Origin: Candidatus Levyibacteriota bacterium
Lineage (GTDB): Bacteria > Patescibacteriota > Microgenomatia > Levybacterales > UBA12049
Direction: 5' to 3'
Length of the DNA stretch: 64,000 nucleotides
Assembly (NCBI GenBank): GCA_009695045.1
Contig: SIBS01000002.1
Location: 26,774-90,773, forward strand
A program made the translations under genes and the position numbers. The notes below the pieces were generated by a model. It had not been told where the DNA came from, did no database searches, and saw only the letters and a list, made by a program, of their open reading frames with translations. This document shows, piece after piece, positions 12,775 through 60,669 of this stretch (the stretch's first letter is position 1; the number at the start of each line of letters is the position of its first letter).

Positions 12775-12854
12775 TACATAGTTAATCGGTTCTTATGTGT
12801 TTAATTCTTTATCTGTTTGCTATTAAAATCAATCACATGATATAATTACTTCTT

Positions 12855-24735: not shown

Positions 24736-24789
24736 TTATAATAATATTATCTAATATATTTTTATTTTTTTTTATATTATAATAGTCTA

Positions 24790-25683
24790 ATGAATAAAAA
24801 AGCAAAATTAAAAAAAAATAAAAATAATTATCTTCGTAATTTAAATTATAATCAAGCAATATTTTTTATATTATTTTTAATTATTATTTATATCTTTAAT
24901 ATAGTTAAAAGTAATATTAATTATTTTAAATCAAAAATTAAGCCTCATATTGCTAAGGGAACAATTGCCTCAGTTAATCAACCCTTATCTAGTATTAGAT
25001 TACCAATTTTTTTATATCATTATGTTGAGTATGTAGCTGATCAAAACGATACTATTCGTAAATCACTTAATATTCAACCATGGGTATTGGAAAAGCAAAT
25101 ACAGACACTTAAAGATGCTGGATATAATTTTATTACTCCTTCTGAGGCAATACAAATGCTTAATGGAAATATCCCACTCGTTATTAAACCAATTATTCTC
25201 TCATTTGATGATGGATATAGGGATTTTTATACTGATGTTTTCCCAATTATTAAAAAAGAAAAAGTAAGAGCAATTGTATACATTGTGCCTGGATTTATCG
25301 ATAAAATAAATTTTATGTTCAGGAATCAGTTAGAGGAAGTTGCTGATAGTTCATTAATAGAAATCGGCGCACATACAGTAAATCATGTTTGGCTTAAGGG
25401 GCTTGAGGCACATCATATTAAGAAAGAGATTGTAGAAAGTAAATTATTGCTAGAGGACTCTATTCATAGAAAAGTTGTATCATTTGCATATCCATATGGG
25501 GCTTTTGATGATCAAATATCAAAAATAGTAAAAGAAGCTGGTTTTACATCTTCAGTATCAACCATCTCTGGAATTGAAGCTACTCACTTAAATAAATTTT
25601 ATCTTTTTAGATTGCGACCCGGTAATCGTATTGGAAAGTCATTAATTGATTGGTTAGATCAATCTGTATTTTATTCATGGTAA
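24790..25683 (+). CDS. Polysaccharide deacetylase (NodB homology / CE4), membrane-anchored
   Basis: N-terminal TM; NodB motifs LSFDDGYRDFYTDVFP (TFDDG-like) and GAHTVNHVWL (H-x-x-x-H). Confidence 0.75.
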   Translation: MNKKAKLKKNKNNYLRNLNYNQAIFFILFLIIIYIFNIVKSNINYFKSKIKPHIAKGTIASVNQPLSSIRLPIFLYHYVEYVADQNDTIRKSLNIQPWVLEKQIQTLKDAGYNFITPSEAIQMLNGNIPLVIKPIILSFDDGYRDFYTDVFPIIKKEKVRAIVYIVPGFIDKINFMFRNQLEEVADSSLIEIGAHTVNHVWLKGLEAHHIKKEIVESKLLLEDSIHRKVVSFAYPYGAFDDQISKIVKEAGFTSSVSTISGIEATHLNKFYLFRLRPGNRIGKSLIDWLDQSVFYSW

Positions 25684-25762
25684 ATTATTTTATAATTTGA
25701 CGATATTTTCCCAAGTAAATTAAATTCTTCCAAAATGGCCATATGAAGCAGTTGATAAATAA

Positions 25763-26667
25763 ATAGGTCTACGTAGATTAAGACCTTTAATAATTCCCTC
25801 CAACGATGTGTCTAAAATTTTACTTACGAAATTATTTATCATATTAGGAGATGATCTTGATGTATTAAAAGTTTCTACTTCTTACATAAGTGTTTTTATG
25901 CTTGCTAAAAAAATACTCCAATAACCCCTGATTTAACAAAAAAATTACATCATTTACTCATGAATAAGATAGAATTTAAATATTTAGGTTAATTTCGCGA
26001 TAACCCCGTCTTCGTTGGGCATCGTACAAAAGAGGAAATTGTTGTAAAACATAATCCTCCATTTCATACTAGGCAAGAGATTGAGACTGCATTAATTGAA
26101 TTATTTGATTAGCTTATGAGTCAAGATGATTTGCATCCATTGATAAAGGCAGGGGTTTTTCATCATCAGTTTGTATCCATGCACCCTTTTTTAGATTGTA
26201 ACGGACGCCTTACTAGGATTCTTACTGAATATTATTTATTATTAAAAAATTATGAAGTTGCTAAATACTTTATACTAGATGATTATTATGATATGGATAG
26301 GCATCTGTATTCCGATAAGTTACATACTGCAGATCAGGGAGATAAAACAACTTGGCTTTAATATTTTTTAGAAGGTATTGGTCACTCCCTAAAGCCTGCA
26401 ATTGCTATAATAAATGAATTGAAAAGATTTAATATGGAAGATATAACTGGAGAGAAAAGAGTGCTTGTAACCAATAGGGAAGAAGAGGTATTGGAGATTG
26501 TAATAAATAAAAAAGCTGTAAAAACTACAGATATACAAGAGAATCTTTCAGTAACCCGTCAACAGGCTCATTCCTTGCTAGCTTCATTAGTTAGGAAAGG
26601 GTTACTTTGTAAGTTTGGAAAGACAAAAAAAAGTTATTATAAATTAGTAACTAAATTAAATAACTAA
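25763..26667 (+). pseudogene. Decayed Fic/Doc-family (AMPylator-like) gene with a C-terminal winged-helix domain, interrupted by several stops and one frameshift
   Basis: From ~25909 to 26667, frame 1 reads ...ITPDLTKKLHHLLMNKIEFKYLG*FRDNPVFVGHRTKEEIVVKHNPPFHTRQEIETALIELFD*LMSQDDLHPLIKAGVFHHQFVSMHPFLDCNGRLTRILTEYYLL...DKTTWL*YFLEGIGHSLKPAIAIINEL...wHTH. The core motif is HPFLDCNGRLTR (canonical HPFx[D/E]GNGRxxR, with G mutated to C). A TAA at 25906, TAA at 25987, TAG at 26107 and TAA at 26359 interrupt one continuous frame. The segment upstream of 25906 is in a different frame. Confidence 0.65.
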
Positions 26668-32803: not shown

Positions 32804-32873
32804 ATAGCATATGATTTTGTCAATGTTAATAAATTATGGTAATATATCTCAGAAATTAGCCAGTATAGTTAAT

Positions 32874-32946
32874 GGACCCTTAGCTCAGTTGGTAGAGCAC
32901 TGCATTCACATTGCAAAGGTCAGAAGTTCGAGACTTCTAGGGTCCA
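32874..32946 (+). tRNA. tRNA-Val (anticodon CAC)
   Basis: Manual cloverleaf: acceptor GGACCCT/AGGGTCC (7 bp), D-stem GCTC/GAGC, anticodon stem CTGCA/TGCAA (4 bp plus a C27-A43 mismatch), loop TTCACAT (U33, CAC, A37), T-stem AGAAG/CTTCT, T-loop TTCGAGA. No encoded CCA. Confidence 0.7.
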
Positions 32947-33064
32947 CAAGATTATATATAAAATTTGTAGTCTTAAGATTATTTTTTAAAGTTATCATTT
33001 TTAATTTATTAAGATATAAAAAATTATTTGGTGAATCAAATATTTTTGTTATAAATCAAAAACT

Positions 33065-34111
33065 ATGACCATTGTCTTTTTTTGTCGATTGTTTTATCCC
33101 CATATTGGTGGTGTGGAAAAACATGTAATGGAAATTGCTAAACGATTAGTTTCACTTGGTAATAAGCTAATAATTATAACAGAATCATCTCTCGAAGTTT
33201 ATTCAGAAGGAAATAAGCCAATTTTATTTGAAATAATTGATAATATTGAAGTATATCGTATTCCAGTTGAAAAGAATGAATCAAGTAAAAAATGGATTAT
33301 CTGGCGATGGATGTGGAAGAATAAGCAAATTTGGCATAATGCTGATATTTTGCACTTTCATGATGTTTTTTTCTGGTATTTGCCGTTTCGATTATTAAAT
33401 TTATCTAAAAATGCATACATAACTTTTCATGGTTATGAGGGTTATCCTCTTAAAAAAAAAGCGGTTTTAATAAGAAAACTTGCTGAAATATTAACAAATG
33501 GAAATATTTGCATAGGAGATTTTATAAAAAAGTGGTATGGAACAAAATCTACATATGTTTCATATGGAGCGGTGAACATTTCTAAAGAGAAAAAAGTTCA
33601 CCAACCTTCTCCATTCTCAGCGCTTTTTTATGGCAGATTGGATAATCAGACTGGGATAACGATATATGATGCTGCAATGATTATAATAAATAAAAAATAT
33701 CCACAATTTTCTCTAACAATTATTGGTGACGGACCCTTGAGAGATAAAATTGATGATAAAATAAGGCGTTTTGGATATCAAATCAATATTTCAGAATATC
33801 TTAAAAATAATAGATTTGTTTTTATTTCTAGCTATCTTTCTATTCTTGAAGCACTTGCTGCCAAAAGACTTGTTTTTGCGGTTTACGATAATCCTATAAA
33901 AAAAGATTATTTAGAGATGGCCCCATTTGCGTCATTTATTATTATCGAAAATAGCCATCAAAAATTAGCTGAAAAAGTTGCCTTTTTTATAAAAAATCCA
34001 ACCTTAGAAGCTTACAAGATTGAAGAAGGATACAAATGGGTCAAAAATCAGACATGGGATAGTGTTGTCAAATTATATTTAAAATTATGGAATAAGCATA
34101 ATATAATATGA
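33065..34111 (+). CDS. GT-B fold glycosyltransferase (GT4-like)
   Basis: N-terminal GT4 start YPHIGGVEKHVMEIAKRL; C-terminal Rossmann half with an EALAAKRLVFAV-type donor-binding region. Confidence 0.6.
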   Translation: MTIVFFCRLFYPHIGGVEKHVMEIAKRLVSLGNKLIIITESSLEVYSEGNKPILFEIIDNIEVYRIPVEKNESSKKWIIWRWMWKNKQIWHNADILHFHDVFFWYLPFRLLNLSKNAYITFHGYEGYPLKKKAVLIRKLAEILTNGNICIGDFIKKWYGTKSTYVSYGAVNISKEKKVHQPSPFSALFYGRLDNQTGITIYDAAMIIINKKYPQFSLTIIGDGPLRDKIDDKIRRFGYQINISEYLKNNRFVFISSYLSILEALAAKRLVFAVYDNPIKKDYLEMAPFASFIIIENSHQKLAEKVAFFIKNPTLEAYKIEEGYKWVKNQTWDSVVKLYLKLWNKHNII

Positions 34112-35043
34112 AAATATCACTTTGTATTACTGTTTTTAATGAAGAAAAATCCATAAAAAGACTCCTTACTAGTATTGAACGTCAAACAAAACTTCCTGAT
34201 GAGATAGTAATTGTTGATGGAGGAAGCATTGATAAGACAATAGATTTTTTAAATAAGCATAAATCATATATTAAACAGGTAAAAATAATTGTAAAAAAAG
34301 GAAATAGAGCAATAGGAAGAAATGAAGCAATACGCCTCGCAACAGGTAATATTATAGCAATAACTGATGCAGGATGTGAGTTAGATAGTCATTGGTTAGA
34401 AGAAATTACTAATCCTTTTGATAGTAAAAAAATACAGGTTGTTAGTGGATATTATAAAGGTAAATCAAAAAATTCATTAGAAGCATCATTAGTTCCATAC
34501 GTGCTGGTAATGCGAGATAAAGTTAATTCTAAAAACTTTCTTCCTTCAACAAGATCTATGGCAATGCGTAAGAATTTGTGGAAACAGCTTGGTGGATTCC
34601 CTATTCAATATACATGGAATGAAGACTTTGTTTTCAGCAAGCAAATAGAAAAAGTCGGTATAATTCCAATTTTTGCAGAAAATGCGATAGTTTTTTGGTT
34701 TCCTCGTGAAACAATCTGGCAAGGGTGGAACATGTTTTATGCATTTGCAAAAGGAGATGCGCAAGCTGATATTTGGCGTCCTAAAGTAATTATTTTATTA
34801 CTTCGTATGATATTTGTCAGCTTCTTTTTCATATATGCAGTTCTTATGCAAAATATACTTGTGTGGCAAATACTTGGAGGGGGAGCAATTTTTTATGGAT
34901 TGTGGGCAATATCCAAGAATTATTGTTATGTAAAAACCCCTATGGCTTTTATTTATTTACCTCTTTGGCAAGTTATTTCAGATAACGCTGTTTTTGTTGG
35001 TACATTTGTGGGTTTTTTTTGGAAAAAAATCAAACAGAAATAA
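34108..35043 (+). CDS. GT2 glycosyltransferase with two C-terminal TM helices (polyprenyl-phosphate sugar synthase-like: DPM1/GtrB/ArnC type)
   Basis: ISLCITVFNEEKSIKRLLTSI...EIVIVDGGSIDKT (GT-A DxD region) plus C-terminal hydrophobic helices (VIILLLRMIFVSFFFIYAVLM, ILGGGAIFYGLWAI). Confidence 0.6.
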   Translation: MKISLCITVFNEEKSIKRLLTSIERQTKLPDEIVIVDGGSIDKTIDFLNKHKSYIKQVKIIVKKGNRAIGRNEAIRLATGNIIAITDAGCELDSHWLEEITNPFDSKKIQVVSGYYKGKSKNSLEASLVPYVLVMRDKVNSKNFLPSTRSMAMRKNLWKQLGGFPIQYTWNEDFVFSKQIEKVGIIPIFAENAIVFWFPRETIWQGWNMFYAFAKGDAQADIWRPKVIILLLRMIFVSFFFIYAVLMQNILVWQILGGGAIFYGLWAISKNYCYVKTPMAFIYLPLWQVISDNAVFVGTFVGFFWKKIKQK

Positions 35044-35241
35044 TAAGATAAAAAATATATAAATATTTTTTTTATTTTGTTATTTTTTACATCATCAATA
35101 TTTATTAAAAAAATCTAATAGCTTCTATTGATCTTATAATTAACAATAAAATGTACAAGTACTATCAAAAATAGCGTTATATTTATATGAATACAGAAGA
35201 AATAGCTTTGAGTGAATTAATTAAGTATAATAAGAATAGTT

Positions 35242-36459
35242 ATGGGATATATGACTCATGTAATAAAAGGAATTTCTTGGGTGGGATTATTCCGATTTGG
35301 CACAAGAGGCATATCTTTTTTTAGAATTGCCATAATTGCTCGCATTCTTTCTCCATTACAGTTTGGTTTATTTGGTATTGCATCATTAATGTTATCTATG
35401 ATAGAAGTCATAACAGAGATAGGTATAAATGTAATTTTATTACAAATTAAAGAAAAAATTGATGAATATATAAATACTGCATGGATAATATCTATTATTA
35501 GGGGTATTTTAATTTTTTTTATTATTTTTATATCATCATTTATTATGGTGAAATTTTTCAACGCAGCAGATGCAATATATCTTATTATGTTGATTAGTCT
35601 TGTTCCATTAATTCGAGGATTTATTAATCCTGCGATTATTAAATTTCAAAAGGATCTTCTTTTTGAAAAAGAATTTTATTATAGAACTGCGATTTTTTTT
35701 GTTGAATCTATTGTTACAATAACTCTGGTTATGTTATTGCAATCACCTAGCGCATTGATTTGGGGATTAATTGCAGGCGCTTTTTTTGAGGTTATTATTT
35801 CCTTTTATTTCATACGACCGATTCCTAAAATTATCTTTAATTATGTTATTGCAAGACATATAATTTCTCGCGGAAAATGGATGAATATGACTAGTATTTT
35901 TTCTTATTTTTTTCAAAACGGTGATAAAATTGCTGTTGGACGAATTATTGGAATTAGTGCCTTAGGTATTTATGAAATGGCATATAAAATAGCTATGCTT
36001 CCAATTACAGAGATTTCAAATGTAATCGTTAGGGTTACATTTCCTGTATATCTAAGGATAGCAGATGATAAAGCAAGAATGCGTAAGGCGTATTTCCAAA
36101 GTCTTTTGTTGGTTGCAGTTGTCAGTGTCCCGATTGGATTAATTTTTATTATTTTTCCTCAAGATATAGTAAAAATTATTTTAGGGCAAAAATGGTTAGT
36201 TGCTGCGCCCGTGTTTCAGGTATTGGCTATTGTTGGAGTTATTCAAGCAATCATGGGGGATTCTGGTGCCATATTTTTAGCAAATAAAAAACAAGAATAT
36301 ACGACAATTAATACAGGGATTAGTTTTTTGATTATGGCAATCATGATAGTTCCATTAACGCATGCATACGGATTAATTGGCGCAGGACTTGCAGTAATTG
36401 TTGGTGCTGTTGCAACGCTTCCCGTTACTATTTATTTTTTAGTAAAACTTTTAAAATAA
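35242..36459 (+). CDS. MOP-superfamily polysaccharide/oligosaccharide flippase (Wzx-like)
   Basis: About 12 predicted TM helices, 405 aa, with the typical Wzx arrangement inside a glycosyltransferase cluster. Confidence 0.55.
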   Translation: MGYMTHVIKGISWVGLFRFGTRGISFFRIAIIARILSPLQFGLFGIASLMLSMIEVITEIGINVILLQIKEKIDEYINTAWIISIIRGILIFFIIFISSFIMVKFFNAADAIYLIMLISLVPLIRGFINPAIIKFQKDLLFEKEFYYRTAIFFVESIVTITLVMLLQSPSALIWGLIAGAFFEVIISFYFIRPIPKIIFNYVIARHIISRGKWMNMTSIFSYFFQNGDKIAVGRIIGISALGIYEMAYKIAMLPITEISNVIVRVTFPVYLRIADDKARMRKAYFQSLLLVAVVSVPIGLIFIIFPQDIVKIILGQKWLVAAPVFQVLAIVGVIQAIMGDSGAIFLANKKQEYTTINTGISFLIMAIMIVPLTHAYGLIGAGLAVIVGAVATLPVTIYFLVKLLK

Positions 36460-36631
36460 TATTTTATAAAGCATGTTGATTTCAATATTTATTCAATGTG
36501 CTATTATATATAATTGTCACAGATTAAGAATTTAAAAAATGAAGAAATTTTATACAAAATATTGAATAGTCTCTTTATTATGTGTATGTATATTAAAAAT
36601 GAAAGTAGACAAAAGTAGATAAAAAGAAAAT

Positions 36632-37735
36632 ATGAAAATTGCATTATTTCATGAAGTAGTTATTGGAGGAGCTAGAAGCTGCGCAAATGAATTTGCTAAA
36701 TCACTTCGAGAAAAAAAGCACATAGTAGATTTATATATTGTTGATAAAGAATATCCGATAGGAGAAAAAAAATATTATAATGAAATATATTATTACCCTT
36801 TTATTTCAAAAGATTGGAGAGGAAATAGTTGGAAAAATAAGCTATATAAGGATACAGTAGAGATCTATAAATTATACACACTTCATAAAAAAATCGCAAA
36901 TGATATTGAAAAAAAATCATATGATTTTGCTTTTATCCATCCATCTCAATATACACAAGCACCATTTTTGCTTCGTTTTTTGAAAATCTCAAAGCTATAT
37001 TATTGTCAAGAATCACTGAGGATGATTTATGAAAAAAGTTTTGATGAAACAGAAAATTTAGATATATTTAAAAAACGATATGAAAGAATTACTCGAAAAA
37101 TACGAAAAATATTGGATAGAAAAAATATTTCATCAGCAGATATAATTTTTACTAATTCTACTTTTACACAGAATAATATATGGAAAGCATATCATTTAAA
37201 AAGTATCATATGTCATATGGGGGTTGATACGAAAATATTTTTTGAAACAACAAAGAATAAAGATATAGATATTCTATATATTGGATCCGAAGATCCTATT
37301 GATGGATATGAATTATTCAATGAATCACGAAAATATATTAAAACAAAACTAAGTATAGATTATTTATTGCGTGGAAAAAAATGGTTAAGCGGAAAAAAGC
37401 TTATCGATTACTATAGTAGAGCAAAAATAGTTATTTGTTTTGGACAACGTGAACCGTTTGGGTTAGTGCCCATTGAGGCAATGAGCTGTGGAGCAATAGT
37501 AATTGCCTTAAATGAGGGTGGATATAAGGATTCAGTACAAGATAAAATAACAGGATTTTTAGTGTCTAAGAATCCTGTAACTATAGCAAAAGTTATTAAT
37601 AATGCTTTAAAACATCCAATTCTTTTGAATAGTATGTCAGAAAAATCAAAAGAAGAAATAAAAAAAAATTGGTTATGGAAAAATAGTATGGAAATAATTT
37701 TATTTAATTATGCAATATGGAAAAAAAACCAGTAG
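36632..37735 (+). CDS. GT4-family glycosyltransferase
   Basis: C-terminal FGQREPFGLVPIEAMSCGAIVIALNEGGYKDSV carries the GT4 E-x7-E donor motif. Confidence 0.7.
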   Translation: MKIALFHEVVIGGARSCANEFAKSLREKKHIVDLYIVDKEYPIGEKKYYNEIYYYPFISKDWRGNSWKNKLYKDTVEIYKLYTLHKKIANDIEKKSYDFAFIHPSQYTQAPFLLRFLKISKLYYCQESLRMIYEKSFDETENLDIFKKRYERITRKIRKILDRKNISSADIIFTNSTFTQNNIWKAYHLKSIICHMGVDTKIFFETTKNKDIDILYIGSEDPIDGYELFNESRKYIKTKLSIDYLLRGKKWLSGKKLIDYYSRAKIVICFGQREPFGLVPIEAMSCGAIVIALNEGGYKDSVQDKITGFLVSKNPVTIAKVINNALKHPILLNSMSEKSKEEIKKNWLWKNSMEIILFNYAIWKKNQ

Positions 37736-39924
37736 TTAGCATCATTATAGTTCATTATCAAGTAAAAAAACAATTATTTAATTGTCTTCAATCTATTTAT
37801 GAAAAAAAGTCTAAATATCATTTTGAAATTATTGTTATTGATAATGATGAAAATCCATATATAGAAAAATATCTCGTAAAGAAATTTCCTAGAGTTAAAT
37901 ATATAAAAAATGAGATTAATAATGGGTATAGTGGGGGAAATAATCTCGGTGCATTATCTTCAAAGGGAGAATTTATTTTTTTCCTCAATCCTGATACTCT
38001 TTTTAAAAATAATGTCTTAGATCAATTGTTAATAAAAATGATGACATATAAATATATTGGCATAGTAGCTCCTTTGCTTTTTAAGGAAAACGGAAAACCA
38101 TTCATACTGCAAGGATCGAAAGAACTTACACCTTTACGAGCAATTTTTTCTTTATCATTTATATATAAATTATTTCCCAATAATAATATTGCAAATGAAT
38201 TTTGGTTAAAAAAATGGAATAAAAAAGAACATAAAGAAGTAGAAGTAGTTCCTGGAACTGCTTTTATGATACGAAAAAATATTTTTAAAAAAATAGGTGG
38301 ATTTGATGAAAATTATTTCCTTTATTTCGAGGAAAATGATATTTGTAAAAGAGTCATAGACTTAGGTAGTAAAATATATATGATATCAGATGCTCATGTT
38401 ATACATTTTTGGGGAGAAAGTACAAAAAAGAGTACAAAAAATATTAAAGCAATTTTTGAAAAAAGTAGATTTTATTATTTTAATAAATTTTATGGACTAC
38501 CTAAGGCATTCTTGGTAGAATTTATGCTTATTTTTTCAAAAGAAATATTATTTTTAATCGCCATTTTATTTTTAGCGGGATGGCTTCGCTTGCATGAGAT
38601 TGAAAGATACTTTCCATTTTTAGGAGATTTTGCATGGTTTTATATTTCAGCTCGAGATTTGTTAATTGATGGTATTTTTCCTTTCGTAGGTATTGCTTCA
38701 AGTCATCCATGGATTCATCAAGGTGCATTTTGGACATATCTTTTGGCTCCAGCACTTGCTATGGGTAATTTTAATCCAATTGCAGGAGGATATCTGTCTG
38801 GTAGTATTGGAATTTTAACAGTTTTAATTTTATATATTTGTACAAAAAATATGTTTGATAGAAGAATAGCAATTTTTACTAGTGCTTTTTTTGCAACATC
38901 ACCTTTGGTTGTTTTTCACTCAAGACTTCCATATCATACAGTACCTATTCCATTATTTGTTATATTATATTTTTATAGTTTGAATAAATGGGTCAAGGGA
39001 AATATTTATTATTTTCCTTTATCGTTGTTTTTTTTAGTAGTATTATATAATTTTGAATTGGCGACTTCAGTTTTTTCTCTACTTATTATCTGTCTTTTGG
39101 GATACGGTATTTATATAAAAGCAATATGGATAAAAAAATTATGGACTAAGAAAATAATATCGTTTTCAATTATTGCAGTATTAATTCCTTTATTGCCAAT
39201 GCTTTTTTATGATTTTTATCATGGATTTTCTCAGACATTACTATTTTTAATATGGATTGGATATAGATTTCTTTTAGTTTTAGGATATCCATCATTACAT
39301 CCTGAAATAAAAACAATTACATTTTCTAGCATGATCTATTTTATTAAAAATAATATACAAAATTACTATTATGTTTCATCATGGATATTTGCATTTTTTT
39401 TAGGAATAATAAGTATTTCTATTTGTGGCATATTATTTATTAAAAATAAAACATTAACTTATGCAATACTTTTTTTAGGAATATTAATTCCTGGTATTAT
39501 AATTTTTTTCAGTAGAGTTCCATCTGAAGCATATTTACCAATGTTTTTTCCACAATTAGCAATATGCATTGGTATAGCATTCTCTTATTTGTATAAATAT
39601 TCACCAAATTATTCATGGATAATAGTAGTTTTTTTTATATTTTTAATTATTTCAAATTCCGTCAATATCATTTCTAAAAATTTCTTGACTAAAAATGAAA
39701 ATAAATTCTATAAAAAAATTGTAGCCGCTCAAGAAATTATCTCACTTGCAGAAGGAAAAGAATACATTATACTAGGAGGAGGAATAAATGGTAAATTTGA
39801 AAGCTTTATTATGCCATATAAATATTTGACCTGGTTTTTGGGTTATTCTGAAAATAAGAAAGCTAAAATAAAGATAGAAGTGTCAGAAGATGAAATGGGT
39901 ATATATTTAAAAAAATATGATTAG
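37717..39924 (+). CDS. Fusion protein: N-terminal GT2 (GT-A) glycosyltransferase plus a C-terminal ~450-aa polytopic membrane domain (GT-C / PMT-ArnT-like)
   Basis: N-terminal VSIIIVHYQ...IIVIDNDENPY...NNGYSGGNNLG...FLNPDT...FDENYFLYFEENDICKR (GT2 DxD and ED motifs). At least 10 hydrophobic helices follow from ~aa 270, with aromatic/acidic-rich loops (FLGDFAWFYISARDL). Confidence 0.65.
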   Translation: MEKKPVVSIIIVHYQVKKQLFNCLQSIYEKKSKYHFEIIVIDNDENPYIEKYLVKKFPRVKYIKNEINNGYSGGNNLGALSSKGEFIFFLNPDTLFKNNVLDQLLIKMMTYKYIGIVAPLLFKENGKPFILQGSKELTPLRAIFSLSFIYKLFPNNNIANEFWLKKWNKKEHKEVEVVPGTAFMIRKNIFKKIGGFDENYFLYFEENDICKRVIDLGSKIYMISDAHVIHFWGESTKKSTKNIKAIFEKSRFYYFNKFYGLPKAFLVEFMLIFSKEILFLIAILFLAGWLRLHEIERYFPFLGDFAWFYISARDLLIDGIFPFVGIASSHPWIHQGAFWTYLLAPALAMGNFNPIAGGYLSGSIGILTVLILYICTKNMFDRRIAIFTSAFFATSPLVVFHSRLPYHTVPIPLFVILYFYSLNKWVKGNIYYFPLSLFFLVVLYNFELATSVFSLLIICLLGYGIYIKAIWIKKLWTKKIISFSIIAVLIPLLPMLFYDFYHGFSQTLLFLIWIGYRFLLVLGYPSLHPEIKTITFSSMIYFIKNNIQNYYYVSSWIFAFFLGIISISICGILFIKNKTLTYAILFLGILIPGIIIFFSRVPSEAYLPMFFPQLAICIGIAFSYLYKYSPNYSWIIVVFFIFLIISNSVNIISKNFLTKNENKFYKKIVAAQEIISLAEGKEYIILGGGINGKFESFIMPYKYLTWFLGYSENKKAKIKIEVSEDEMGIYLKKYD

Positions 39925-40654
39925 TGCAGTTATACTTACTCGAAATGAAGAAAAAAATATCATTGACTGTATGGAAAGTCTTTATTTTTGTAATGAAATA
40001 GTTATTATTGATGATGTTTCCACAGATAGAACAGTTGAAATTGCAAAAAAAGCAGGAGCTATAGTTTATGAGCATGAATTAAATAATAATTTCTCAAAAC
40101 AAAGAAACTTTGGATTGGAAAAAGCTAAAAATGAATGGATACTATTTATAGATGCAGATGAGAGAATATCAGTAGACTTAAAAAATGAAATAAAATATAA
40201 AATTTTAAAAAAAGGAATAAATGGTTACTCTATTAAAAGAAGTGATTTTTTTTATGGTAAAAAATTATTCCATGGTGAAACATCAAGTATATCGTTAGTT
40301 AGATTAGGAAAAAAAAATCATGGCCTGTGGGATGGTGCAGTGCATGAAGAATGGAAAATTAATGGAAAAATATCTATACTTGATACTCCTTTATTGCATT
40401 ATCCTCATCCTACAATAAATGAATTTTTATTGGAGATAAATTTCTATACTGATTTAAATGCAATGGAATTATTTAATAAAGGAATAAGAGCTACATGGTA
40501 TGATGTTATCATATATCCTGTCGCAAAATTTATACATAATTTTATAATAAGAGCTGGTTTCCAAGATGGAGTTGCTGGAATGATTATTGCAATCATGATG
40601 AGTTTTCATTCATTCTTGGTTAGAGCTAAATTACTAAAATATAATGAAAATTAG
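39917..40654 (+). CDS. GT2 glycosyltransferase (soluble, WaaE/KdtX-like)
   Basis: ISAVILTRNEEKNIIDCMESL...IVIIDDVSTDRT...ILFIDADERI GT-A motifs. Confidence 0.7.
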   Translation: MISAVILTRNEEKNIIDCMESLYFCNEIVIIDDVSTDRTVEIAKKAGAIVYEHELNNNFSKQRNFGLEKAKNEWILFIDADERISVDLKNEIKYKILKKGINGYSIKRSDFFYGKKLFHGETSSISLVRLGKKNHGLWDGAVHEEWKINGKISILDTPLLHYPHPTINEFLLEINFYTDLNAMELFNKGIRATWYDVIIYPVAKFIHNFIIRAGFQDGVAGMIIAIMMSFHSFLVRAKLLKYNEN

Positions 40655-40756
40655 AAAAAATAATATTTCTTATATATCACCTTTTTATATATATATATTT
40701 TTTGTAGTTTATATATTATTCGATTATATACAATATCTTCTTTGCAGGGTTAAAAT

Positions 40757-42343
40757 ATGTTTTCCTTTGCATTTTTAATAACATTATATTCATATACAAT
40801 ATTTTTTATTGGAATTATTGGATTATTATATAAAAATGTAATAGTCTCTATCTCATTATTTTATTCATTTATTGCTATCTACTTATTTTTAAAGAAAAAA
40901 TTATATATTTTATCTCTAAAAATAAATTCAAAAATAGAAGTATTATTTATTAGCATTATCAGTTTACAAGCATTGATAAATATAATAGGCGCATTGGGTC
41001 CGGAATTATCATTTGATTCACTTTGGTATCATCTTACCTTGCCTAAATTGTATTTATTAAATAATAGGATTATGTTTATTCCGGGGGGACTTCTTTATTA
41101 CTCTGCTATGCCAAAACTCTCAGAGATGATATATTTAGGAATTCTAGCGATAAAAAGTGAAGTCTTTGTAAAGATATGTCACTATTTTTTTGGAATCTTT
41201 TCAATTATTGCATTATTTAATTTTTCAAAAAAAATATATTCCAGAACTATATCTTTAATAATCGTAACTATTTTTTACTCAAATTTAGTTGTTGCATGGG
41301 AATCTATAACCTCATATATCGACTTAATTAGAACATTTTATGAAATATTAGCTTTTATATCATTTTACAATTGGATTGAATATAAAAATAAACGATGGCT
41401 AGTATATTCTGCTATTTTATTAGGATCAGCAATATCTGTAAAAATTATTTCTTTTTTTTCACTTATTATTTATTTTATATTAATTATTGTAAACTTTATT
41501 AATCATAAATCATCAATTTATAATTTATTTATTAATTTATTTATATATATATTTATAGCTTTAATTATTCCACTCCCATGGTTTATTTTTTCATATATTA
41601 ATACAGGAAATTTAATTTATCCATTTTTTAATTTATTAAATCATGCAATATTGATAGATCTTCCAAGCTCTTTTGTAAATTTTATATATAAGATCATATT
41701 ATTATTTCTTCGTTCCCCAGATCCTATTTCACCATTATATTTTATATTTATTCCTCTCATATTTATTTATAAATCAAAAAATAAAAATATTATATATTTT
41801 TATATTTATGCATTCATAGCTTTACTTGCATGTATTTTAACTTCAAGTACTGGGGGAAGTAGATTTTTAATGCCATATCTACCAATATGGACACTAATTA
41901 TTGGTGATGTTATTCAAAATATTTATAATATTAAATTCAAAAAATTTATTATTATAATAATAATTATTTTTTCTTTTATCTCGGTACCTTATCGTTTTAT
42001 TGCAAATATACGCTTTATCCCTGTTATACTAGGACTAGAGAGTAAAAATAATTTTCTTAAAAATAATTTAAATTTTAATTTTGGAGATTTTTATGATATT
42101 GATGGATATTTGGATAAAAAAATTAATTATAATGATTCGGTTTTAATATATGATATTCATAATCTTTATTATATAGATTTTCCATATATTCATGAAAGTT
42201 GGTTAAAAAAAAATGATAAGTATAATTTTATAATTTCCAGATCAGTTATTTTTCCATTGAATTTAGATAAAAATAAATGGAAATTAATTTATAGAAATTT
42301 TAAATCAAACGTAATCTTATACGGTAAAATATATGATAATTAA
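40757..42343 (+). CDS. Polytopic membrane protein, putative GT-C glycosyltransferase (PMT/ArnT/GT39-83-like)
   Basis: 528 aa, 11 or more TM helices, with the first large loop carrying acidic/aromatic residues (GPELSFDSLWYHLTLPKLY). Assignment is by architecture and context, not by a strong motif. Confidence 0.45.
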   Translation: MFSFAFLITLYSYTIFFIGIIGLLYKNVIVSISLFYSFIAIYLFLKKKLYILSLKINSKIEVLFISIISLQALINIIGALGPELSFDSLWYHLTLPKLYLLNNRIMFIPGGLLYYSAMPKLSEMIYLGILAIKSEVFVKICHYFFGIFSIIALFNFSKKIYSRTISLIIVTIFYSNLVVAWESITSYIDLIRTFYEILAFISFYNWIEYKNKRWLVYSAILLGSAISVKIISFFSLIIYFILIIVNFINHKSSIYNLFINLFIYIFIALIIPLPWFIFSYINTGNLIYPFFNLLNHAILIDLPSSFVNFIYKIILLFLRSPDPISPLYFIFIPLIFIYKSKNKNIIYFYIYAFIALLACILTSSTGGSRFLMPYLPIWTLIIGDVIQNIYNIKFKKFIIIIIIIFSFISVPYRFIANIRFIPVILGLESKNNFLKNNLNFNFGDFYDIDGYLDKKINYNDSVLIYDIHNLYYIDFPYIHESWLKKNDKYNFIISRSVIFPLNLDKNKWKLIYRNFKSNVILYGKIYDN

Positions 42344-43535
42344 AATTTTTATTTTTATACTTTTTTTGATTTATCCATCTGGCGAAGTTCTTCGTTTTAA
42401 TGTCTATCCAAACGTTTCCCTAACAGTTAATGATATTTGTGTTGGACTTTTTGTCTTTGTATTAATTATATTTAATAATCTAAAAAATTTACCATTTAAA
42501 AATAATATATATATATTTATTGGAGTATGTATCTTATCTTTGTTATATAATTTCGAAAGATTTACTTTTACTCAAATATTTATTTCATCTTTATATATTT
42601 TTAGATGGATTATATATTTTAACCTTTTTTTTATATTTTTTAATCTTAAAGACTATAAATTTACAGAAAAACTTATGATTTTTTCTGGATTTATTTTTAC
42701 TATTTTTGGATATATTCAATATTTTTTTTATAATAATTTAAAAAATCTATATTATTTGGGATGGGATGATCATTTATACCGTTTATTTTCAACATTTCTT
42801 GATCCTAATTTTTCTGGAGCCTTTTTAGTACTTTATTTATTTTTTTTAGTTGGAATCTATTATTCACAAAAGTTAATTTCTTACAAGAAATTAACTTTAT
42901 ATTTAATTCTATTTACTATTCCAGCAATATTTTTAACTTATTCTCGTTCTTCTCTTATAATGCTTATTACAGGTGGATTTTTTCTATTATGGTTTTTAAA
43001 TAAAAAAAAACAAATTATTTATTTTATTTTAATTATTATTCTATTTGTTGTAACTTCTTTTAAATATTCTACAATTGAAAATATGAATCTTTTGAGAACA
43101 GCATCTATTAATGCAAGAATATCAAGTGCTAAAGAAGCAATTACTATAATAATAGATAATCCATTAATAGGTATTGGTTTTAATACATATAGATATACTC
43201 AATTAAAATATAAATTTAGAACTGATAACATACCATATATTAGTCATTCAGATGCTGGAACTGATAATAGCTTCCTTTTTATCTTAGCAACAACAGGGAT
43301 AATTGGATTAATATCTTTTAGTTTATTAATTTACCAAATAATAAATAAAACTTACATATCAATGATAAAATATAATAATATTTATGCTCCTATATTTATA
43401 TCATCTTTTATTGGAATACTAGTAAACTCTCAATTTATAAATAGTTTATTTTATCCATTTATAATGGAATGGTTATGGATTCTTTTGGCGTTATCAGTAA
43501 GACAAAAAAATATTAAGGAGAGTAATTTAATTTAA
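42333..43535 (+). CDS. Wzy_C-domain protein (O-antigen ligase/polymerase or PglL-like O-oligosaccharyltransferase family)
   Basis: Polytopic. The conserved Wzy_C loop region (PAIFLTYSRSSLIMLITGGFFLLWF) resembles the (T/S)xSRGAxLG motif; a periplasmic loop lies near ~aa 250-330. Confidence 0.55.
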   Translation: MIIKIFIFILFLIYPSGEVLRFNVYPNVSLTVNDICVGLFVFVLIIFNNLKNLPFKNNIYIFIGVCILSLLYNFERFTFTQIFISSLYIFRWIIYFNLFFIFFNLKDYKFTEKLMIFSGFIFTIFGYIQYFFYNNLKNLYYLGWDDHLYRLFSTFLDPNFSGAFLVLYLFFLVGIYYSQKLISYKKLTLYLILFTIPAIFLTYSRSSLIMLITGGFFLLWFLNKKKQIIYFILIIILFVVTSFKYSTIENMNLLRTASINARISSAKEAITIIIDNPLIGIGFNTYRYTQLKYKFRTDNIPYISHSDAGTDNSFLFILATTGIIGLISFSLLIYQIINKTYISMIKYNNIYAPIFISSFIGILVNSQFINSLFYPFIMEWLWILLALSVRQKNIKESNLI

Positions 43536-44220
43536 TTTCCCTTTTTGTCTTATTTGTTGCGATATCTTCTGCAATTACTATAATTTTATTCTCACCGTTT
43601 TGAAGATTTATTTCATACTCAAAAAATCCATTATCATTAACAATTGCCCATATTCCATTTATTGTTATTTTAACATCTGAATCAGTTTTTCCTTTTATTT
43701 TAATTTTATTATCTTTAGAAAAAGATTCTCCCTCTCGTGGAGAATCTATGGCTAGCGAAGGTGGTTCTTTTTTATACTCAATAATTATTTTATTTGAAAA
43801 ATCTGTTATTTTTTTATCAATAATTGCCTTCGTAAGAATAGTATTTTTACCTTTTTTTAAATATATATTCGAAAAAACAAATGATCCATTATCATTTGTT
43901 TTAGTTTTTTCAATTTCAATTTCATTTATAAAAAGGATTATTATTTGTTTTGATCCAGATGATCCACTTATTTCCAATATCGCACTACTTGTTGCAATTT
44001 GCTGCGTATTAAGTGTTGGTGGTTGAATAAAATTATTCTTATTTTCTGAAATTTCTACTATATTTTTTGTTCCAGATAAAAATGTACTTACCCATATAAT
44101 TATAGGTATTAGAAATTTCATTAATAAAAAAATCAGAATTATTATCCCAATAATATTGATAAAGAGTTTTTTTTTAGTTCTATTTTCTAATCTTCTTGAA
44201 AGTCTACTATTATTGATCAT
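43513..44220 (-). CDS. Signal-anchored surface protein with two Ig-like/beta-sandwich repeats
   Basis: N-terminal basic plus TM (KKLFINIIGIIILIFLLMKFLIPIIIW). Internal repeat NDNGSFVFSNIYLKKGKNTILTKAIID // NDNGFFEYEINLQNGENKIIVIAEDIATN is characteristic of bacterial Ig-like domains. Confidence 0.5.
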   Translation of the reverse strand: MINNSRLSRRLENRTKKKLFINIIGIIILIFLLMKFLIPIIIWVSTFLSGTKNIVEISENKNNFIQPPTLNTQQIATSSAILEISGSSGSKQIIILFINEIEIEKTKTNDNGSFVFSNIYLKKGKNTILTKAIIDKKITDFSNKIIIEYKKEPPSLAIDSPREGESFSKDNKIKIKGKTDSDVKITINGIWAIVNDNGFFEYEINLQNGENKIIVIAEDIATNKTKREIKLNYSP

Positions 44221-44234
44221 GGTTTATATTTATG

Positions 44235-44307
44235 AGCCGATGGTGAGATTTGAACTCACGACTTGCTCTTTACGAAAGAGCTACTCTACCAACTGAGTTA
44301 CATCGGC
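44235..44307 (-). tRNA. tRNA-Thr (anticodon CGT)
   Basis: Reverse complement folds as acceptor GCCGATG/CATCGGC, D-stem ACTC/GAGT, anticodon stem GCTCT/AGAGC, loop TTCGTAA (CGT), T-stem GTGAG/CTCAC, T-loop TTCAAAT, discriminator T. Confidence 0.8.
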
Positions 44308-49985: not shown

Positions 49986-51526
49986 TATTTCTTAATCTCC
50001 TTTGATATTTTATTAAATGAATTTTTAAATGCTTCTAATGCTTTTTTCATTTCATTTAATGTTGTCTCTTTTATTTTTTCTCCACTTGCAAGTAAATCTA
50101 TTACATTTTTATAATTTGCATTGACAAAGGAGTGCATTTCTAATTCGAATCTCTGTACATCTTCAATCTTTATATTATCAAGGCATCCATTTCCAACACA
50201 CCAAATACTTAGTATTTGAAATGCTTCTGAAAGGGGATTATATTGTGATTGTTTAAGAATCTCAACTGTTCTCTTGCCTCGTTCTAGTTGTGAAATTGTT
50301 GCTACATCTAGTTCGCTTCCAAATTGTGCAAATGCTTCAAGTGCTCTAAATTGTGCAAGCTCTAATCTTGTTTTTCCTGCAATTGATTTCATTGCTTTGG
50401 TCTGGGCTGATCCACCAATCCTTGATACAGAATTACCAGCGTTAATTGCTGGCCTTATACCGCTATTGAATAAGTCAGATTGTAGGAAAATTTGTCCATC
50501 CGTAATTGAAATTACATTTGTCGCAATATATGCAGATATATCTCCTGCCTGTGTTTCGATAATTGGAAACGAAGTTATGGATCCACCGCCAAGATCTTTA
50601 TTAAGCTTCACGGATCTTTCTAGTAGTCGACTATGAAGATAGAAAATATCTCCAGGATATGCTTCTCTCCCAGCTGGTCGCCTAAGAACGAGAGATAGTT
50701 GCCTATATGCCCATGCATGCTTTGTTAGATCGTCATAAACTATCAATACATCTTCACCTTTCTCCATGAAATATTCCGCAATAGATGTCCCCGCATAAGG
50801 TGCAAGATATTGTTGCGCTGCGGAATCAGAAGCGCCAGCAACTACAACAACCGTATAATGAAATGAACCTTCGTCTTTTAATCTTTGTATTATTTGCGCT
50901 ACGGTACTTTGCTTTTGTCCGATGGCTACATATATACATATTACTTGTTTTTGAGTTTTTAGAATATTTTTTTGATTTATAATTGCATCTATTGCCACTG
51001 CTGTTTTACCCAAGCCTCTATCACCAATAATAAGTTCCCTTTGACCTCTGCCTACGGGAATCATTGTATCTATTGCTTTTATGCCTGTTTTAAGTGGAGT
51101 ATCGACTGGTTCACGATCAATTACACCAGCTGCAATTCTTTCAAGTGGAATACTTTTTCCTTTTTCAATTTTAATTTTACCATCTAAAGAGTCTCCCATG
51201 GGATTTACAACTCTACCAAGAATTTCATCAGATACATTAATGCTAAGAAGATTTCCTGTACTTTTTACAGTGTCTCCCTCGCGAAGTGATCCTCCTCCGC
51301 TTAAAACTATAATAGATACGAATTCTTCATCGAGATTAAATACGACACCAGTGCTATCGTCTGAAAAAATAACAATTTCCCCCATACCAACCCTTGATAA
51401 TCCAGAAGCGGTAATAACACCATCAGTATTTTTAATAACTTTTCCTACGTTATCTGTTTTAGGATCGTTAGAAAATGTCATAAGACGTTTTTCCAATTTT
51501 TCAATTATTTCATTACTATTAATCAT
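49985..51526 (-). CDS. atpA: F1 ATP synthase subunit alpha
   Basis: Walker A GDRGLGKTA; 513 aa. Confidence 0.95.
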
Positions 51527-51878
51527 AATTTTCGGTAATATGTGCGATAAGATTATCTAGTGTGTTCTTTAGATTATACTCCGAAATGATGTCTTTGTTA
51601 ACCACTCTCATCCCAGTAATAATGGATGGATCCACATCGAAAACAATTTTCTTATTTGGGAAAACTTCTTTCAGTTTTTTTTCCTCATCTATGCTTGGCA
51701 AAGTTGCTAATTTTACTAAGACGCTTTTATCCTCTTCATATTTTTTTAATGCAATTATATACTGTTTTAATTGGGTACGAGAAAGTAAATCAGTTAACTT
51801 TTCTACGGTTGCTTCATCTAATTCATCATCACTTTTATAACTAGTAATAACTAAATCTTTAATTTGTTTTTTTGTCAT
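51519..51878 (-). CDS. atpH: F1 ATP synthase subunit delta (OSCP), N-terminally truncated form (119 aa)
   Basis: C-terminal region VFDVDPSIITGMRVVNKDIISEYNLKNTLDNL matches the delta C-terminal pattern (VDPSLIGGLVVRVGDRVIDGS). It sits between atpF and atpA. The start overlaps the atpF stop, so it cannot be longer. Confidence 0.7.
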   Translation of the reverse strand: MTKKQIKDLVITSYKSDDELDEATVEKLTDLLSRTQLKQYIIALKKYEEDKSVLVKLATLPSIDEEKKLKEVFPNKKIVFDVDPSIITGMRVVNKDIISEYNLKNTLDNLIAHITENYD

Positions 51879-60655: not shown

Positions 60656-60669
60656 AAATTTTATATTAA

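Follow-up and report, generated by a model that had tools for sequence, protein, structure and literature searches.

A ten-kb glycan-assembly locus with extracytoplasmic steps in a Levybacteria (CPR) genome

Similarity to described glycan systems

The lactococcal PSP (cwps) and streptococcal GacI/J-GacK-GacL systems need no phosphoglycosyl-transferase (PGT) (PMC10821137). The ten-kb gene cluster described here, from a Levybacteria genome, would be alike in this respect. It also displays a membrane-associated GT2 as a possible undecaprenyl phosphate (Und-P) primer, several cytoplasmic glycosyltransferases that would extend the glycan, a Wzx-type flippase, GT-C-fold enzymes that may act in polymerisation and ligation on the outside, and conserved transfer components combined with a variable set of glycosyltransferases. 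However no WpsA/GacI-type (DPMS-like) GT2 and no small WpsB/GacJ partner are detected in the locus, which has an extra Wzy_C protein and one GT-C that is fused to a GT-A domain. Its host is a CPR bacterium and not a Firmicute, and there is no rhamnan backbone cluster.

The tuaABCDEFGH genes for teichuronic acid of B. subtilis form a Wzx/Wzy-dependent heteropolysaccharide locus. The present locus shares with tua a TuaB-like MOP flippase, GT2 and GT4 enzymes and a Wzy_C membrane protein (a TuaE-like role), but it is without a TuaA-type PGT, a TuaF-type co-polymerase or a UDP-sugar dehydrogenase, and its conserved core consists of two GT-C enzymes.

Two further comparisons concern individual proteins. 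The GT-C proteins, g5 and g7, resemble ArnT/PMT/PMT_2 enzymes (GT39/GT83-like) in the acidic first outside loop, in the presence of PF13231 in orthologues and in a profile match to ArnT (5EZM), but at just 8-13% sequence identity; g7 itself falls under every Pfam threshold, and g5 bears an N-terminal GT-A domain. The Wzy_C protein, g8, has in common with ligases of the WaaL/PglL/TacL type the Wzy_C domain, approximately 10-12 TM helices, both WaaL-type arginines, a C-terminal “N-x9-G-xx-G” motif and a slow, core-like evolution, as expected with a conserved acceptor. Unlike in these ligases, the “HN” dyad is “DN”, preceded by a His at a distance of six residues, the PglL accessory domain is missing, there is no detectable sequence match to the solved WaaL, and the host is a monoderm CPR bacterium without LPS. 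All components of the locus are from known superfamilies, and current concepts are not overturned.

Genes of the locus

The window analysed is a stretch of 64,000 nt. Eight co-directional open reading frames, g1 to g8, are found on its plus strand at 33065-43535, with positions that match exactly those given in an earlier note on this DNA. Genes g1 and g2 overlap by 4 nt, g4 and g5 by 19 nt, and the 3′ ends of g8 and the convergent g9 by 23 nt. Pfam and NCBIfam searches uphold the family assignments of that note, i.e., two GT4 enzymes, three GT2 domains, a MOP/Wzx flippase and a Wzy_C protein. The cluster is a genuine glycan-assembly locus with extracytoplasmic steps, as had been proposed, and displays a flippase, two GT-C-fold enzymes and a Wzy_C protein. 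The acceptor is not readable from the sequence, in agreement with the earlier note. Counts of orthologues given below refer to 36 species-level relatives with full flanks. Gene content was scanned with Pfam in 20 loci, and the search for a primer used a wider set of 85 related loci (1.41 Mb).

The g1 gene (33065..34111, plus strand) is an accessory GT4 (GT-B) glycosyltransferase with Pfam Glyco_transf_4 and Glycos_transf_1 domains and no TM helices; the 10 kb upstream of g7 contain an orthologue in just four of the 36 related genomes. A second GT4, g4 (36632..37735, plus strand; Glycos_transf_1, E 2e-19), is more widespread (20/36). The g2 gene (34108..35043, plus strand) encodes a membrane-anchored GT2 that matches Pfam GT2, Glyco_tranf_2_3 and Glyco_transf_21. 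It has 2242 relatives in Patescibacteria, with orthologues in 6 of the 36 loci, and is a candidate lipid-directed or priming transferase. A GT-A domain (GT2 at residues 4-190) is followed by about three C-terminal TM helices at 222-300. This layout agrees with the description of g2 in the earlier note as DPM1/GtrB-like with C-terminal TMs, but the specific family match does not: the g2 family profile aligns weakly, and at the N-terminus only, with GtrB (E 8e-5), ArnC (E 3e-4) and DPMS (E 4e-8), and is outscored by TarS, PcManGT, MftF and GT21-type families. Assignment of g2 as a GtrB/DPM1/ArnC-like synthase was therefore rejected in favor of a GT21/MftF-like protein.

The small GT2 encoded by g6 (39917..40654, plus strand; Pfam GT2, E 8e-20) is present in 35 of the 36 loci at 46-56% identity and belongs to the conserved backbone. 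It is of the GmaR/SunS clade. A profile search of the PDB places GmaR (E 2e-25) and SunS (E 3e-15) as its nearest solved relatives, with DPMS at 7e-6 and GtrB at 6e-4, and a DADE motif is invariant. It had been called soluble, but a hydrophobic C-terminal helix is found at residues 217-240. Thus g2 and g6 both show a GT-A domain followed by juxtamembrane or TM helices, as in polyprenyl-phosphate sugar synthases. Similarity specific to GtrB, DPMS or ArnC across the whole catalytic domain is not seen, however, and comparison of the three GT2 domains (g2, the N-terminal domain of g5, and g6) with GtrB, DPMS, ArnC and GacI revealed no specific relation in sequence or fold. A GtrB-like synthase within the locus that supplies polyprenyl-P-monosaccharide donors, as the earlier note had it, finds no support in these domains.

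The flippase gene g3 (35242..36459, plus strand) encodes a protein of the 12-TM type, hydrophobic over its whole length, and of the MOP family. The match to Pfam Polysacc_synt_3 (E 6e-63) is full-length, covering positions 1-293 of the 293 of PF13440, and NCBIfam hits include the MOP flippase PRK10459 (E 3e-50) and TuaB (E 1e-40, 140 bits). Orthologues are found in 22/36 loci, and Polysacc_synt_3 proteins in 11 of the 20 Pfam-scanned loci.

The g5 gene (37717..39924, plus strand) encodes a GT-A (GT2) domain (residues 1 to about 260), GalNAc-T/GlfT2-like, fused to a GT-C membrane domain (approximately 275-735; g5C). The GT-A domain is located before TM1 and would therefore be cytoplasmic. To our knowledge no characterised GT-C has a GT-A domain at its N-terminus, and a literature search for such a fusion found no case. 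The second GT-C enzyme, g7 (40757..42343, plus strand), is PMT_2/ArnT-like and belongs to the conserved backbone. On the sequences themselves the two GT-C calls of the earlier note find no Pfam match above threshold: g7 has none even at E 10, and PMT_2 scores 17.4 bits (E 0.005) on the g5 C-terminus, under the cut-off of 26.1. The calls are borne out by PF13231 in g7 and g5 orthologues at 42-61% identity and by the fold, since the multi-helix membrane cores of both are superposable on solved GT-C enzymes. The fold matches (ALG12 21.1, ArnT 19.4, AftA 16.6) fit lipid- and glycan-directed GT-Cs equally well. Both proteins have conserved acidic residues in a first loop that hydropathy and the positive-inside rule place on the outside. 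These are E83 and D87 in g7, invariant in 48 sequences and situated after a Lys-rich inside loop, and in g5 D304, invariant in 43 sequences and located in the loop following TM1, and D314, conserved in at least 90%. The donor of g5C and g7 may be a polyprenyl-phosphate-linked sugar.

The Wzy_C membrane protein of the ligase/polymerase/O-OTase superfamily, g8 (42333..43535, plus strand), is found in all 36 loci at 36-47% identity, immediately 3′ of g7 in 33 of these, and is also part of the backbone. It matches PF04932 with E 7e-21 and 75 bits (cut-off 31.7). As Pfam at E <=0.01 detects this generic domain alone, and no PglL-specific accessory domain, the earlier label “PglL-like” is not retained. 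R205 and R262, invariant in 42 orthologues, fall opposite R215 and R288 of WaaL from E. coli and would be a pair for binding lipid-linked (pyro)phosphate; because the hhalign probability is low, this equivalence rests on motif and spacing. The two arginines of WaaL bind pyrophosphate, and the donors known for Wzy_C enzymes to date are Und-PP-linked (PMC12800693). Thus an Und-PP pathway would fit g8 better than Und-P. A search for the catalytic-His motif “H[NSQ]-x9-G-xx-[GTY]” leads to D311-N312-x9-G322-xx-G325, with “DN” in 40/40 orthologues. H305, six residues upstream of “DN”, is present in 38/40, and in the hhalign alignment, again of low probability, H305 is opposite H336 of WaaL and D307 opposite H338, with a 4-residue insertion.

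Window ORFs of at least 100 aa were scanned with Pfam, excluding a few ORFs inside or overlapping larger genes and the one at 51519-51878. Of WecA- or WbaP-type enzymes only MraY was detected (12855-13862, in the dcw cluster), and no Wzz/PCP chain-length regulator, LCP or GtrA protein was found among the scanned ORFs. A tblastn search of the 85 related loci with E. coli WcaJ, E. coli WecA and the window MraY detected no PGT in 84, and a single Bac_transf gene in the remaining one (L077). With the MraY of the dcw cluster set aside, neither the locus and its surroundings in the window nor 84 of the 85 loci show an initiating PGT of the WbaP/PglC or WecA type, and the first sugar is most likely put on Und-P by a membrane-associated GT2. 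Priming on Und-P is proposed by analogy, because no GT2 here is specifically related to GtrB, DPMS, ArnC or GacI.

Conserved backbone and variable 5′ part

The order g7, g8, convergent g9 and ATP synthase is found in 36/36, 36/36, 36/36 and 35/36 relatives, respectively, and is extended by g6 (35/36), the g5 fusion (30/36) and tRNA-Thr(cgt) (34/36). The g9 gene (43513..44220, minus strand; Pfam Glucodextran_B, E 5e-16) encodes a membrane-anchored protein with a conserved N-terminal basic motif, one TM helix and two Ig-like beta domains. Backbone proteins show 36-56% identity and PyrE, PyrF and AtpC 34-64%, i.e., they diverge about equally slowly. This slow divergence speaks against a polymerase specific to serotypes, and in favor of a substrate or acceptor that is itself conserved. 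The backbone stays beside the ATP-synthase operon across species with only about 45% protein identity. Since the last five genes keep the same place across related genomes, the locus appears to be an inherited core envelope system of the lineage and not an inserted variable island.

Species vary in the 5′ part (g1-g4) and, between g6 and g7, at a hot spot; accessory content in relatives includes methyltransferases, extra PMT_2/YfhO GT-Cs, GT4 and GT2 enzymes and sugar-nucleotide genes. The variability that the earlier note expected between the two tRNA genes is seen in these two regions, but g5-g9 is a syntenic core. That note would have given up its reading for GT-C proteins that are not glycosyltransferases in an invariant locus; the GT-C folds are real, and invariance holds for the core but not for the 5′ part or the hot spot.

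Proposed pathway, alternatives and flanking tRNA genes

From the gene families, the folds, the conserved acidic and basic residues, the synteny and the lack of a PGT in the locus, we infer a carrier lipid, an order of steps, a priming enzyme, roles for g5C, g7 and g8, and an acceptor as follows. On the cytoplasmic face, g1, g2, g4, the GT-A domain of g5 and g6 would build an oligosaccharide on Und-P. The first sugar may be added by g2, or by g6 or the g5 GT-A domain, after the scheme of lactococcal PSP or streptococcal GacI/WpsA, or by a priming enzyme from another part of the genome. The lipid-linked glycan would then be flipped to the outer face by g3. There the putatively polyprenyl-dependent g5C, g7 and g8 may act in its polymerisation, its en bloc transfer or its decoration. 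The acceptor would be conserved across the lineage, possibly a glycopolymer anchored in the wall or membrane, or a protein of the envelope. The invariant g5-g6-g7-g8, with g9 alongside, would represent fixed transfer machinery, and the variable 5′ genes (GT4s, GT2s, methyltransferases, with extra GT-Cs elsewhere) would set the species-specific glycan structure. A vertically inherited envelope-glycan assembly line of Levybacteria, with this mechanism in its entirety, could as well be right as wrong.

CPR bacteria (Patescibacteria) are ultra-small and mostly episymbiotic, and their surface chemistry is essentially unknown; a literature search found no experimental data on any CPR glycan. The genomes are small (related contigs are 0.5-1.6 Mb), and approximately 10-13 kb is devoted to the locus. 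This expense, together with a fixed five-gene backbone, points to an indispensable envelope glycoconjugate. The species-specific variable part might decide how the cells attach to hosts or are recognised by phages. The natural GT-A-GT-C fusion and a subfamily of Wzy_C proteins whose catalytic motif appears altered are also of enzymological interest.

A classical Wzx/Wzy-dependent pathway should also be considered, although it is rather unlikely. Here a PGT encoded elsewhere would prime an Und-PP-sugar, GT4 and GT2 enzymes would finish the repeat unit, g3 would flip it and g8 would be the Wzy polymerase. The two GT-Cs would add no more than monosaccharide side branches, taken from polyprenyl-P-sugars that a GtrB-like enzyme elsewhere supplies (three-component decoration). 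The gene set is like that of tua, including the TuaB match of g3 and TuaG matches of g2, g5 and g6, and g8 keeps the WaaL-type Arg pair. GT-C decoration systems are moreover widespread (PMC10821137). Against it are the lack of a PGT in the window and in nearly all related loci, the lack of a chain-length regulator among the scanned ORFs, and an invariant part that consists of GT-Cs and not of flippase and GT4s. In addition g8 is conserved like housekeeping genes though the upstream glycosyltransferase sets differ, and such conservation is atypical of repeat-unit-specific Wzy polymerases. General protein O-glycosylation is unlikely. In this reading g8 would be an O-oligosaccharyltransferase of the PglL/WsaB type, g7 a protein O-glycosyltransferase of the PMT/PgtC type, or both, with envelope proteins such as pilins, an S-layer protein or g9 as targets. 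It draws on the Wzy_C domain being the catalytic domain of O-OTases (PMC12800693), on GT-C protein O-glycosylation in monoderm bacteria (PMC12041528), on the closeness of g6 to the protein/peptide glycosyltransferases GmaR and SunS, and on the constant adjacency of g9; a conserved acceptor would also account for g7 and g8 evolving slowly. However g8 has just Wzy_C, the g9 ectodomain is two folded Ig-like domains with no Ser/Thr-rich disordered stretch, the GT-C fold matches do not single out protein-directed enzymes, and no glycoprotein is directly evidenced. More speculative still, and improbable, is a lineage-wide PGT-free glycoconjugate pathway in which g5 couples cytoplasmic sugar addition and extracytoplasmic transfer on one polypeptide, and the divergent “DN” Wzy_C protein ligates the glycan to a conserved acceptor, possibly g9 or a host-derived membrane lipid. 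If true, the product would be a core surface structure that episymbionts present to hosts and phages.

A glycan island acquired horizontally, variable between strains and inserted between two tRNA genes, as the insertion landmarks of the earlier note would imply, is very improbable. Both tRNAs do bound the cluster, as found by ARAGORN and Rfam: tRNA-Val(cac) at its conserved head (32874..32947, plus strand; Rfam 64.8 bits) and tRNA-Thr(cgt) as a conserved syntenic neighbor (44234..44307, minus strand; 70.1 bits). Gene content between them differs from species to species, and GC drops to 0.19-0.23 over 41-44 kb, compared with about 0.29 elsewhere. The two are not insertion landmarks, however. 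The tRNA-Thr gene has the same position and strand in 5/5 loci and then in 34/36, and all 36 relatives keep the low-GC genes g7-g9 in synteny. Pfam detects no integrase among the locus genes, and a search for att-like direct repeats of the tRNA 3′ ends yielded AT-rich chance repeats only. Four contigs of the same species from different samples are 99.75-99.995% identical and collinear, with evenly spread SNPs and no structural variation. The low GC would be in keeping with strongly hydrophobic membrane proteins encoded by a genome rich in AT. An inserted variable island is thus contradicted, and the inherited envelope system is preferred. The tRNA-Val(cac) gene precedes the g1 orthologue in three other genomes (L009, L018 and L062). 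In the window an 85-aa ORF at 32811-33068, probably spurious, overlaps this tRNA gene.

Gene content and protein families of the locus

Eight co-directional open reading frames are found at 33065-43535, with coordinates exactly as given in the earlier note. All lie on the plus strand and are termed here g1 (33065-34111), g2 (34108-35043), g3 (35242-36459), g4 (36632-37735), g5 (37717-39924), g6 (39917-40654), g7 (40757-42343) and g8 (42333-43535). Starts and stops overlap in four pairs (g1/g2 by 4 nt, g4/g5 by 19 nt, g5/g6 by 8 nt and g7/g8 by 11 nt), and the three intergenic gaps measure 198, 172 and 102 nt. No credible small gene, such as a GacJ/WpsB-like activator or GtrA, was detected in the 198- and 172-nt gaps. 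A promoter and terminator scan was uninformative, with 95 sites vs 98 expected in AT-rich DNA. Both ARAGORN and Rfam detect the reported flanking tRNAs, tRNA-Val(cac) at 32874-32947 and tRNA-Thr(cgt) at 44234-44307. An 85-aa ORF at 32811-33068 (+) covers tRNA-Val almost entirely and is called as a gene in public assemblies (in L001, 2053-2310); it is probably a spurious call.

Pfam and NCBIfam searches agree with the assignment of g1 and g4 to GT4, of g2, the g5 N-terminus and g6 to GT2, and of g3 to the flippases (Polysacc_synt_3/MOP over the full length, E 6e-63). The Wzy_C assignment of g8 also holds (E 7e-21). The g2 protein had been described as GtrB/DPM1-like. Its architecture, a GT-A domain and approximately three C-terminal TM helices, fits this description, but its family does not: in a PDB search TarS (3e-14) and PcManGT (2e-10) rank above DPMS (4e-8), GtrB (8e-5) and ArnC (3e-4), and matches to the last three are limited to the N-terminus. 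The best NCBIfam matches are MftF, an arsenosugar GT, PgaC, EpsD and HpnI, and the family is large in Patescibacteria (2242 matches with Pfam GT2 and Glyco_transf_21). The g6 protein is not simply the soluble GT2 previously proposed, as a hydrophobic C-terminal helix is present. It matches GmaR over the whole GT domain (E 2e-25) and SunS (3e-15), and more weakly DPMS (7e-6) and GtrB (6e-4); g6 clearly groups with GmaR and SunS rather than with DPMS or GtrB. Since g2 and g6 are not GtrB/DPM1-like, it is not established that a polyprenyl-P-monosaccharide synthase is encoded within the locus itself.

The g7 protein has no match in NCBIfam, nor in Pfam up to E 10, and the g5 C-terminus scores 17.4 bits against PMT_2, which is under the cut-off. 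The assignment of g7 to GT-C was made via orthologue annotation, profile search and structure prediction. Fold matches for the GT-C proteins are ALG12 (21.1), Pmt4 (21.0), AglB (20.3) and ArnT (19.4; 414 residues aligned), with STT3B, AftA, PglB and PimE also found. In g7, the loop that follows helix 3 has the invariant residues E83, D87, W90 and H92; as a Lys-rich loop precedes it, it should face outward. The GT-C cores of g7 and g5 are distantly homologous (hhalign probability 95.6%, 19% identity). Fold matches, conserved residues and core homology thus bear out the two GT-C transferases of the earlier note, together with the GT2-GT-C fusion. No described GT2-GT-C fusion was found in the literature searched, and a natural GT-A-GT-C fusion that is common in Microgenomates is unusual.

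Residues R91, D145, H147, R150, D157, R205, R255 and R262 of g8 are invariant in 42 orthologues, and H305, D311 and N312 are nearly so. In an hhalign alignment of low probability, R205 (in ‘LTYSRS’) and R262 fall opposite R215 and R288 of E. coli WaaL, an equivalence that is based on motif and spacing. For WaaL and PglS, arginines of this kind have been proposed to coordinate pyrophosphate, with a His as the catalytic residue (PMC12800693). Instead of the canonical ‘H-N-x9-G-xx-G’ motif, 40/40 captured g8 orthologues have ‘D-N-x9-G-xx-G’, and a His is found six residues upstream of ‘DN’ in 38 of the 40. A low-probability but motif-consistent hhalign alignment sets this His against the ‘HLH’ segment of WaaL and includes a 4-residue insertion; the catalytic His may be either displaced or replaced. 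No homologue, WaaL included, was detected in PDB sequence searches that used g8 by itself or 6- and 42-sequence profiles. The altered Wzy_C motif is unusual.

Convergent with g8, and overlapping it by 23 nt (43513-43535), is g9 (43513-44220, minus strand), just downstream of tRNA-Thr. It is a conserved type-II-anchored protein in which a basic N-terminal motif and a single TM helix are followed by two Ig-like domains, of which the second is Glucodextran_B. A convergent overlap of the called g8 and g9 genes is also seen in four of the five annotated relatives, e.g., between 11605-12801 and 12785-13504 of locus L005. As an obvious Ser/Thr-rich glycosylation substrate g9 was rejected, there being no Ser/Thr-rich tract; it is linked to the pathway by position only.

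Synteny across related genomes

Five annotated related loci, from Levybacteria, Roizmanbacteria-labelled and ‘Microgenomates’ genomes, share the order GT2-GT-C fusion (missing from one of the five), ~250-aa GT2, GT-C, Wzy_C, convergent Glucodextran_B/Ig protein, tRNA-Thr(cgt), (pyr genes), ATP synthase and DnaE. A scan with one genome per species gave 295 g7 relatives, from which 80 loci were kept. Among the 36 loci whose 10-kb flanks are complete, g7, g8 and a convergent g9 are always present, with g8 next to g7 in 33. ATP synthase is found in 35, tRNA-Thr(cgt) in 34 and g5 in 30. The g6 gene occurs in 35, at 0.8-6.3 kb upstream, so that the g6-g7 interval is a hot spot for insertions. Presence then falls to 22 for g3, 20 for g4, 6 for g2 and 4 for g1. 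A tRNA-Val(cac) stands at the head of the locus in L009, L018 and L062. Protein identities of the backbone are 36-56%, comparable to those of PyrE, PyrF and AtpC (34-64%) and well under AtpD (75-84%).

Among 119 accessory ORFs taken from 20 loci, Pfam detected 14 further GT2, 13 GT4, 11 flippases, 14 methyltransferases (7 of the sugar C-methyltransferase type), 11 extra PMT_2 GT-Cs, 3 YfhO and sugar-nucleotide enzymes. In three loci (L005 6307-9994, L006 8441-9997 and L008 1099-4699), extra membrane transferases are inserted between the orthologues of g6 and g7 or farther upstream, among them GT87 (PimE-like), additional PMT/PMT_2 GT-Cs, PTPS_related and DUF8201 proteins. These inserts indicate a lineage-specific expansion of polyprenyl-dependent transferases.

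The locus had been read as a variable island bounded by tRNAs. Comparison across relatives confirms the variability for the 5′ part, whereas the 3′ module is conserved and syntenic. The species, one of the Lake Biwa/Baikal Levybacteria, is present in assemblies from several other samples (99.75-99.995% nucleotide identity), and g7 matches ‘hypothetical protein LBMAG33_2240 [Candidatus Levyibacteriota bacterium]’ with 100% identity. Within the species no structural variation was found, and SNPs are evenly spread. There is no integrase among the locus genes and no att-like repeat, and tRNA-Thr and the backbone are syntenic across relatives. Because of this, the locus is regarded as a core locus that is ancestral and syntenic but variable in its 5′ part, and horizontal acquisition of a tRNA-inserted glycan island is essentially refuted. 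A GC dip over g7-g9 was rejected as a sign of horizontal transfer, since it sits on the most conserved genes; it probably reflects the codon content of hydrophobic proteins.

Possible pathway and alternatives

Among the scanned ORFs of the window there is no Bac_transf/WecA-type initiating transferase except MraY of the dcw cluster, and Wzz/PCP, LCP and GtrA families were not seen either. A tblastn search of 85 related loci (1.41 Mb) with E. coli WcaJ, E. coli WecA and the window MraY detected one Bac_transf gene. This sole WcaJ-like phosphoglycosyl-transferase (PGT) within 10 kb of a g7 orthologue is at 5306-5890 (-) of L077. A layout devoid of a PGT is unusual.

There is perhaps an even chance that the following scheme is correct as a whole. 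The cytoplasmic transferases g1, g2, g4, g6 and the g5 N-terminal domain would build an oligosaccharide on undecaprenyl phosphate, which g3 would then flip. Outside, the g5 C-terminal domain, g7 and g8 would polymerise, transfer or decorate the glycan on a lineage-conserved acceptor. The invariant 3′ module would thus be transfer machinery, and the variable 5′ genes would define the glycan. With no PGT in the locus and GT-C enzymes dominant, the closest precedent is the lactococcal PSP/GacIJKL logic. In that system a GT2 primes on C55-P, a Wzx-type flippase follows, and GT-C enzymes polymerise and ligate (PMC10821137).

The main rival is an ordinary undecaprenyl-pyrophosphate Wzx/Wzy pathway in which the primer gene lies elsewhere and the GT-Cs decorate side chains; it is favoured by the conserved Arg pair of g8, and we consider it rather unlikely. 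Protein O-glycosylation is slightly less probable again. Wzy_C O-OTases exist, g6 is GmaR/SunS-like, and GT-C protein O-glycosylation is known from monoderms (PMC12041528). Literature searches revealed nothing specific on CPR/Patescibacteria glycosylation, GT-C or O-antigen ligase, and nothing on the Levybacteria locus or CPR glycoconjugates.

Glycan loci are commonplace, and all components here belong to known superfamilies. It is unusual that a GT-C/Wzy_C/Ig-protein module is kept lineage-wide beside the ATP synthase operon in reduced genomes.

Genomic setting

The window is AT-rich (GC ~0.29), and the locus is surrounded by housekeeping and cell-envelope genes. A mur/dcw peptidoglycan cluster in the left half has MurA-F-type ligases, GlmU, GlmS, MraY, FtsW, MurG, FtsA and FtsZ. 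Directly upstream of the locus are a class I aminoacyl-tRNA synthetase (Ile/Leu/Val/Met-type), RodA/FtsW, L21, L27, ParB and a signal peptidase; downstream are pyrE, pyrF, pyrD, the F-type ATP synthase operon, DnaE, GatA/B and MurT/GatD. MurT (Mur_ligase_M and MurT_C) and GatD (GATase_3), paired at 59888-61998 (-), form the lipid II isoglutamine amidation system typical of Gram-positive-type walls.

GlmU is seemingly split into two overlapping ORFs (NTP_transferase, 4563-5312; hexapeptide acetyltransferase, 5309-5944). Between a Mur ligase and MraY of the dcw cluster are a DegT/DnrJ/EryC1 sugar aminotransferase (10518-11777) and a FemAB-family peptidyltransferase (11755-12774), a pair that may point to modification of the peptidoglycan precursor or interpeptide bridge. 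A VanW-like protein (20660-21337, -) adjoins a YkuD L,D-transpeptidase (21467-22174, +). At 23731-25683 (+), where GC falls to 0.18 (24-25 kb), an Acyl_transf_3 membrane acyltransferase adjoins a polysaccharide deacetylase; these are possible genes for O-acetylation and de-N-acetylation of glycan or peptidoglycan. Short ORFs resembling gene remnants are found in otherwise empty 1-kb gaps at 25720-25842 (-), 26116-26361 (+) and 19452-19676 (-). By eye, one is similar to a C-terminal MetK fragment (‘RRPIYLSTASYGHFGR’), one is a Fic-domain fragment (motif ‘HPFLDCNGRLTR’) and one a SAM-methyltransferase fragment (‘IIDIGAG’).
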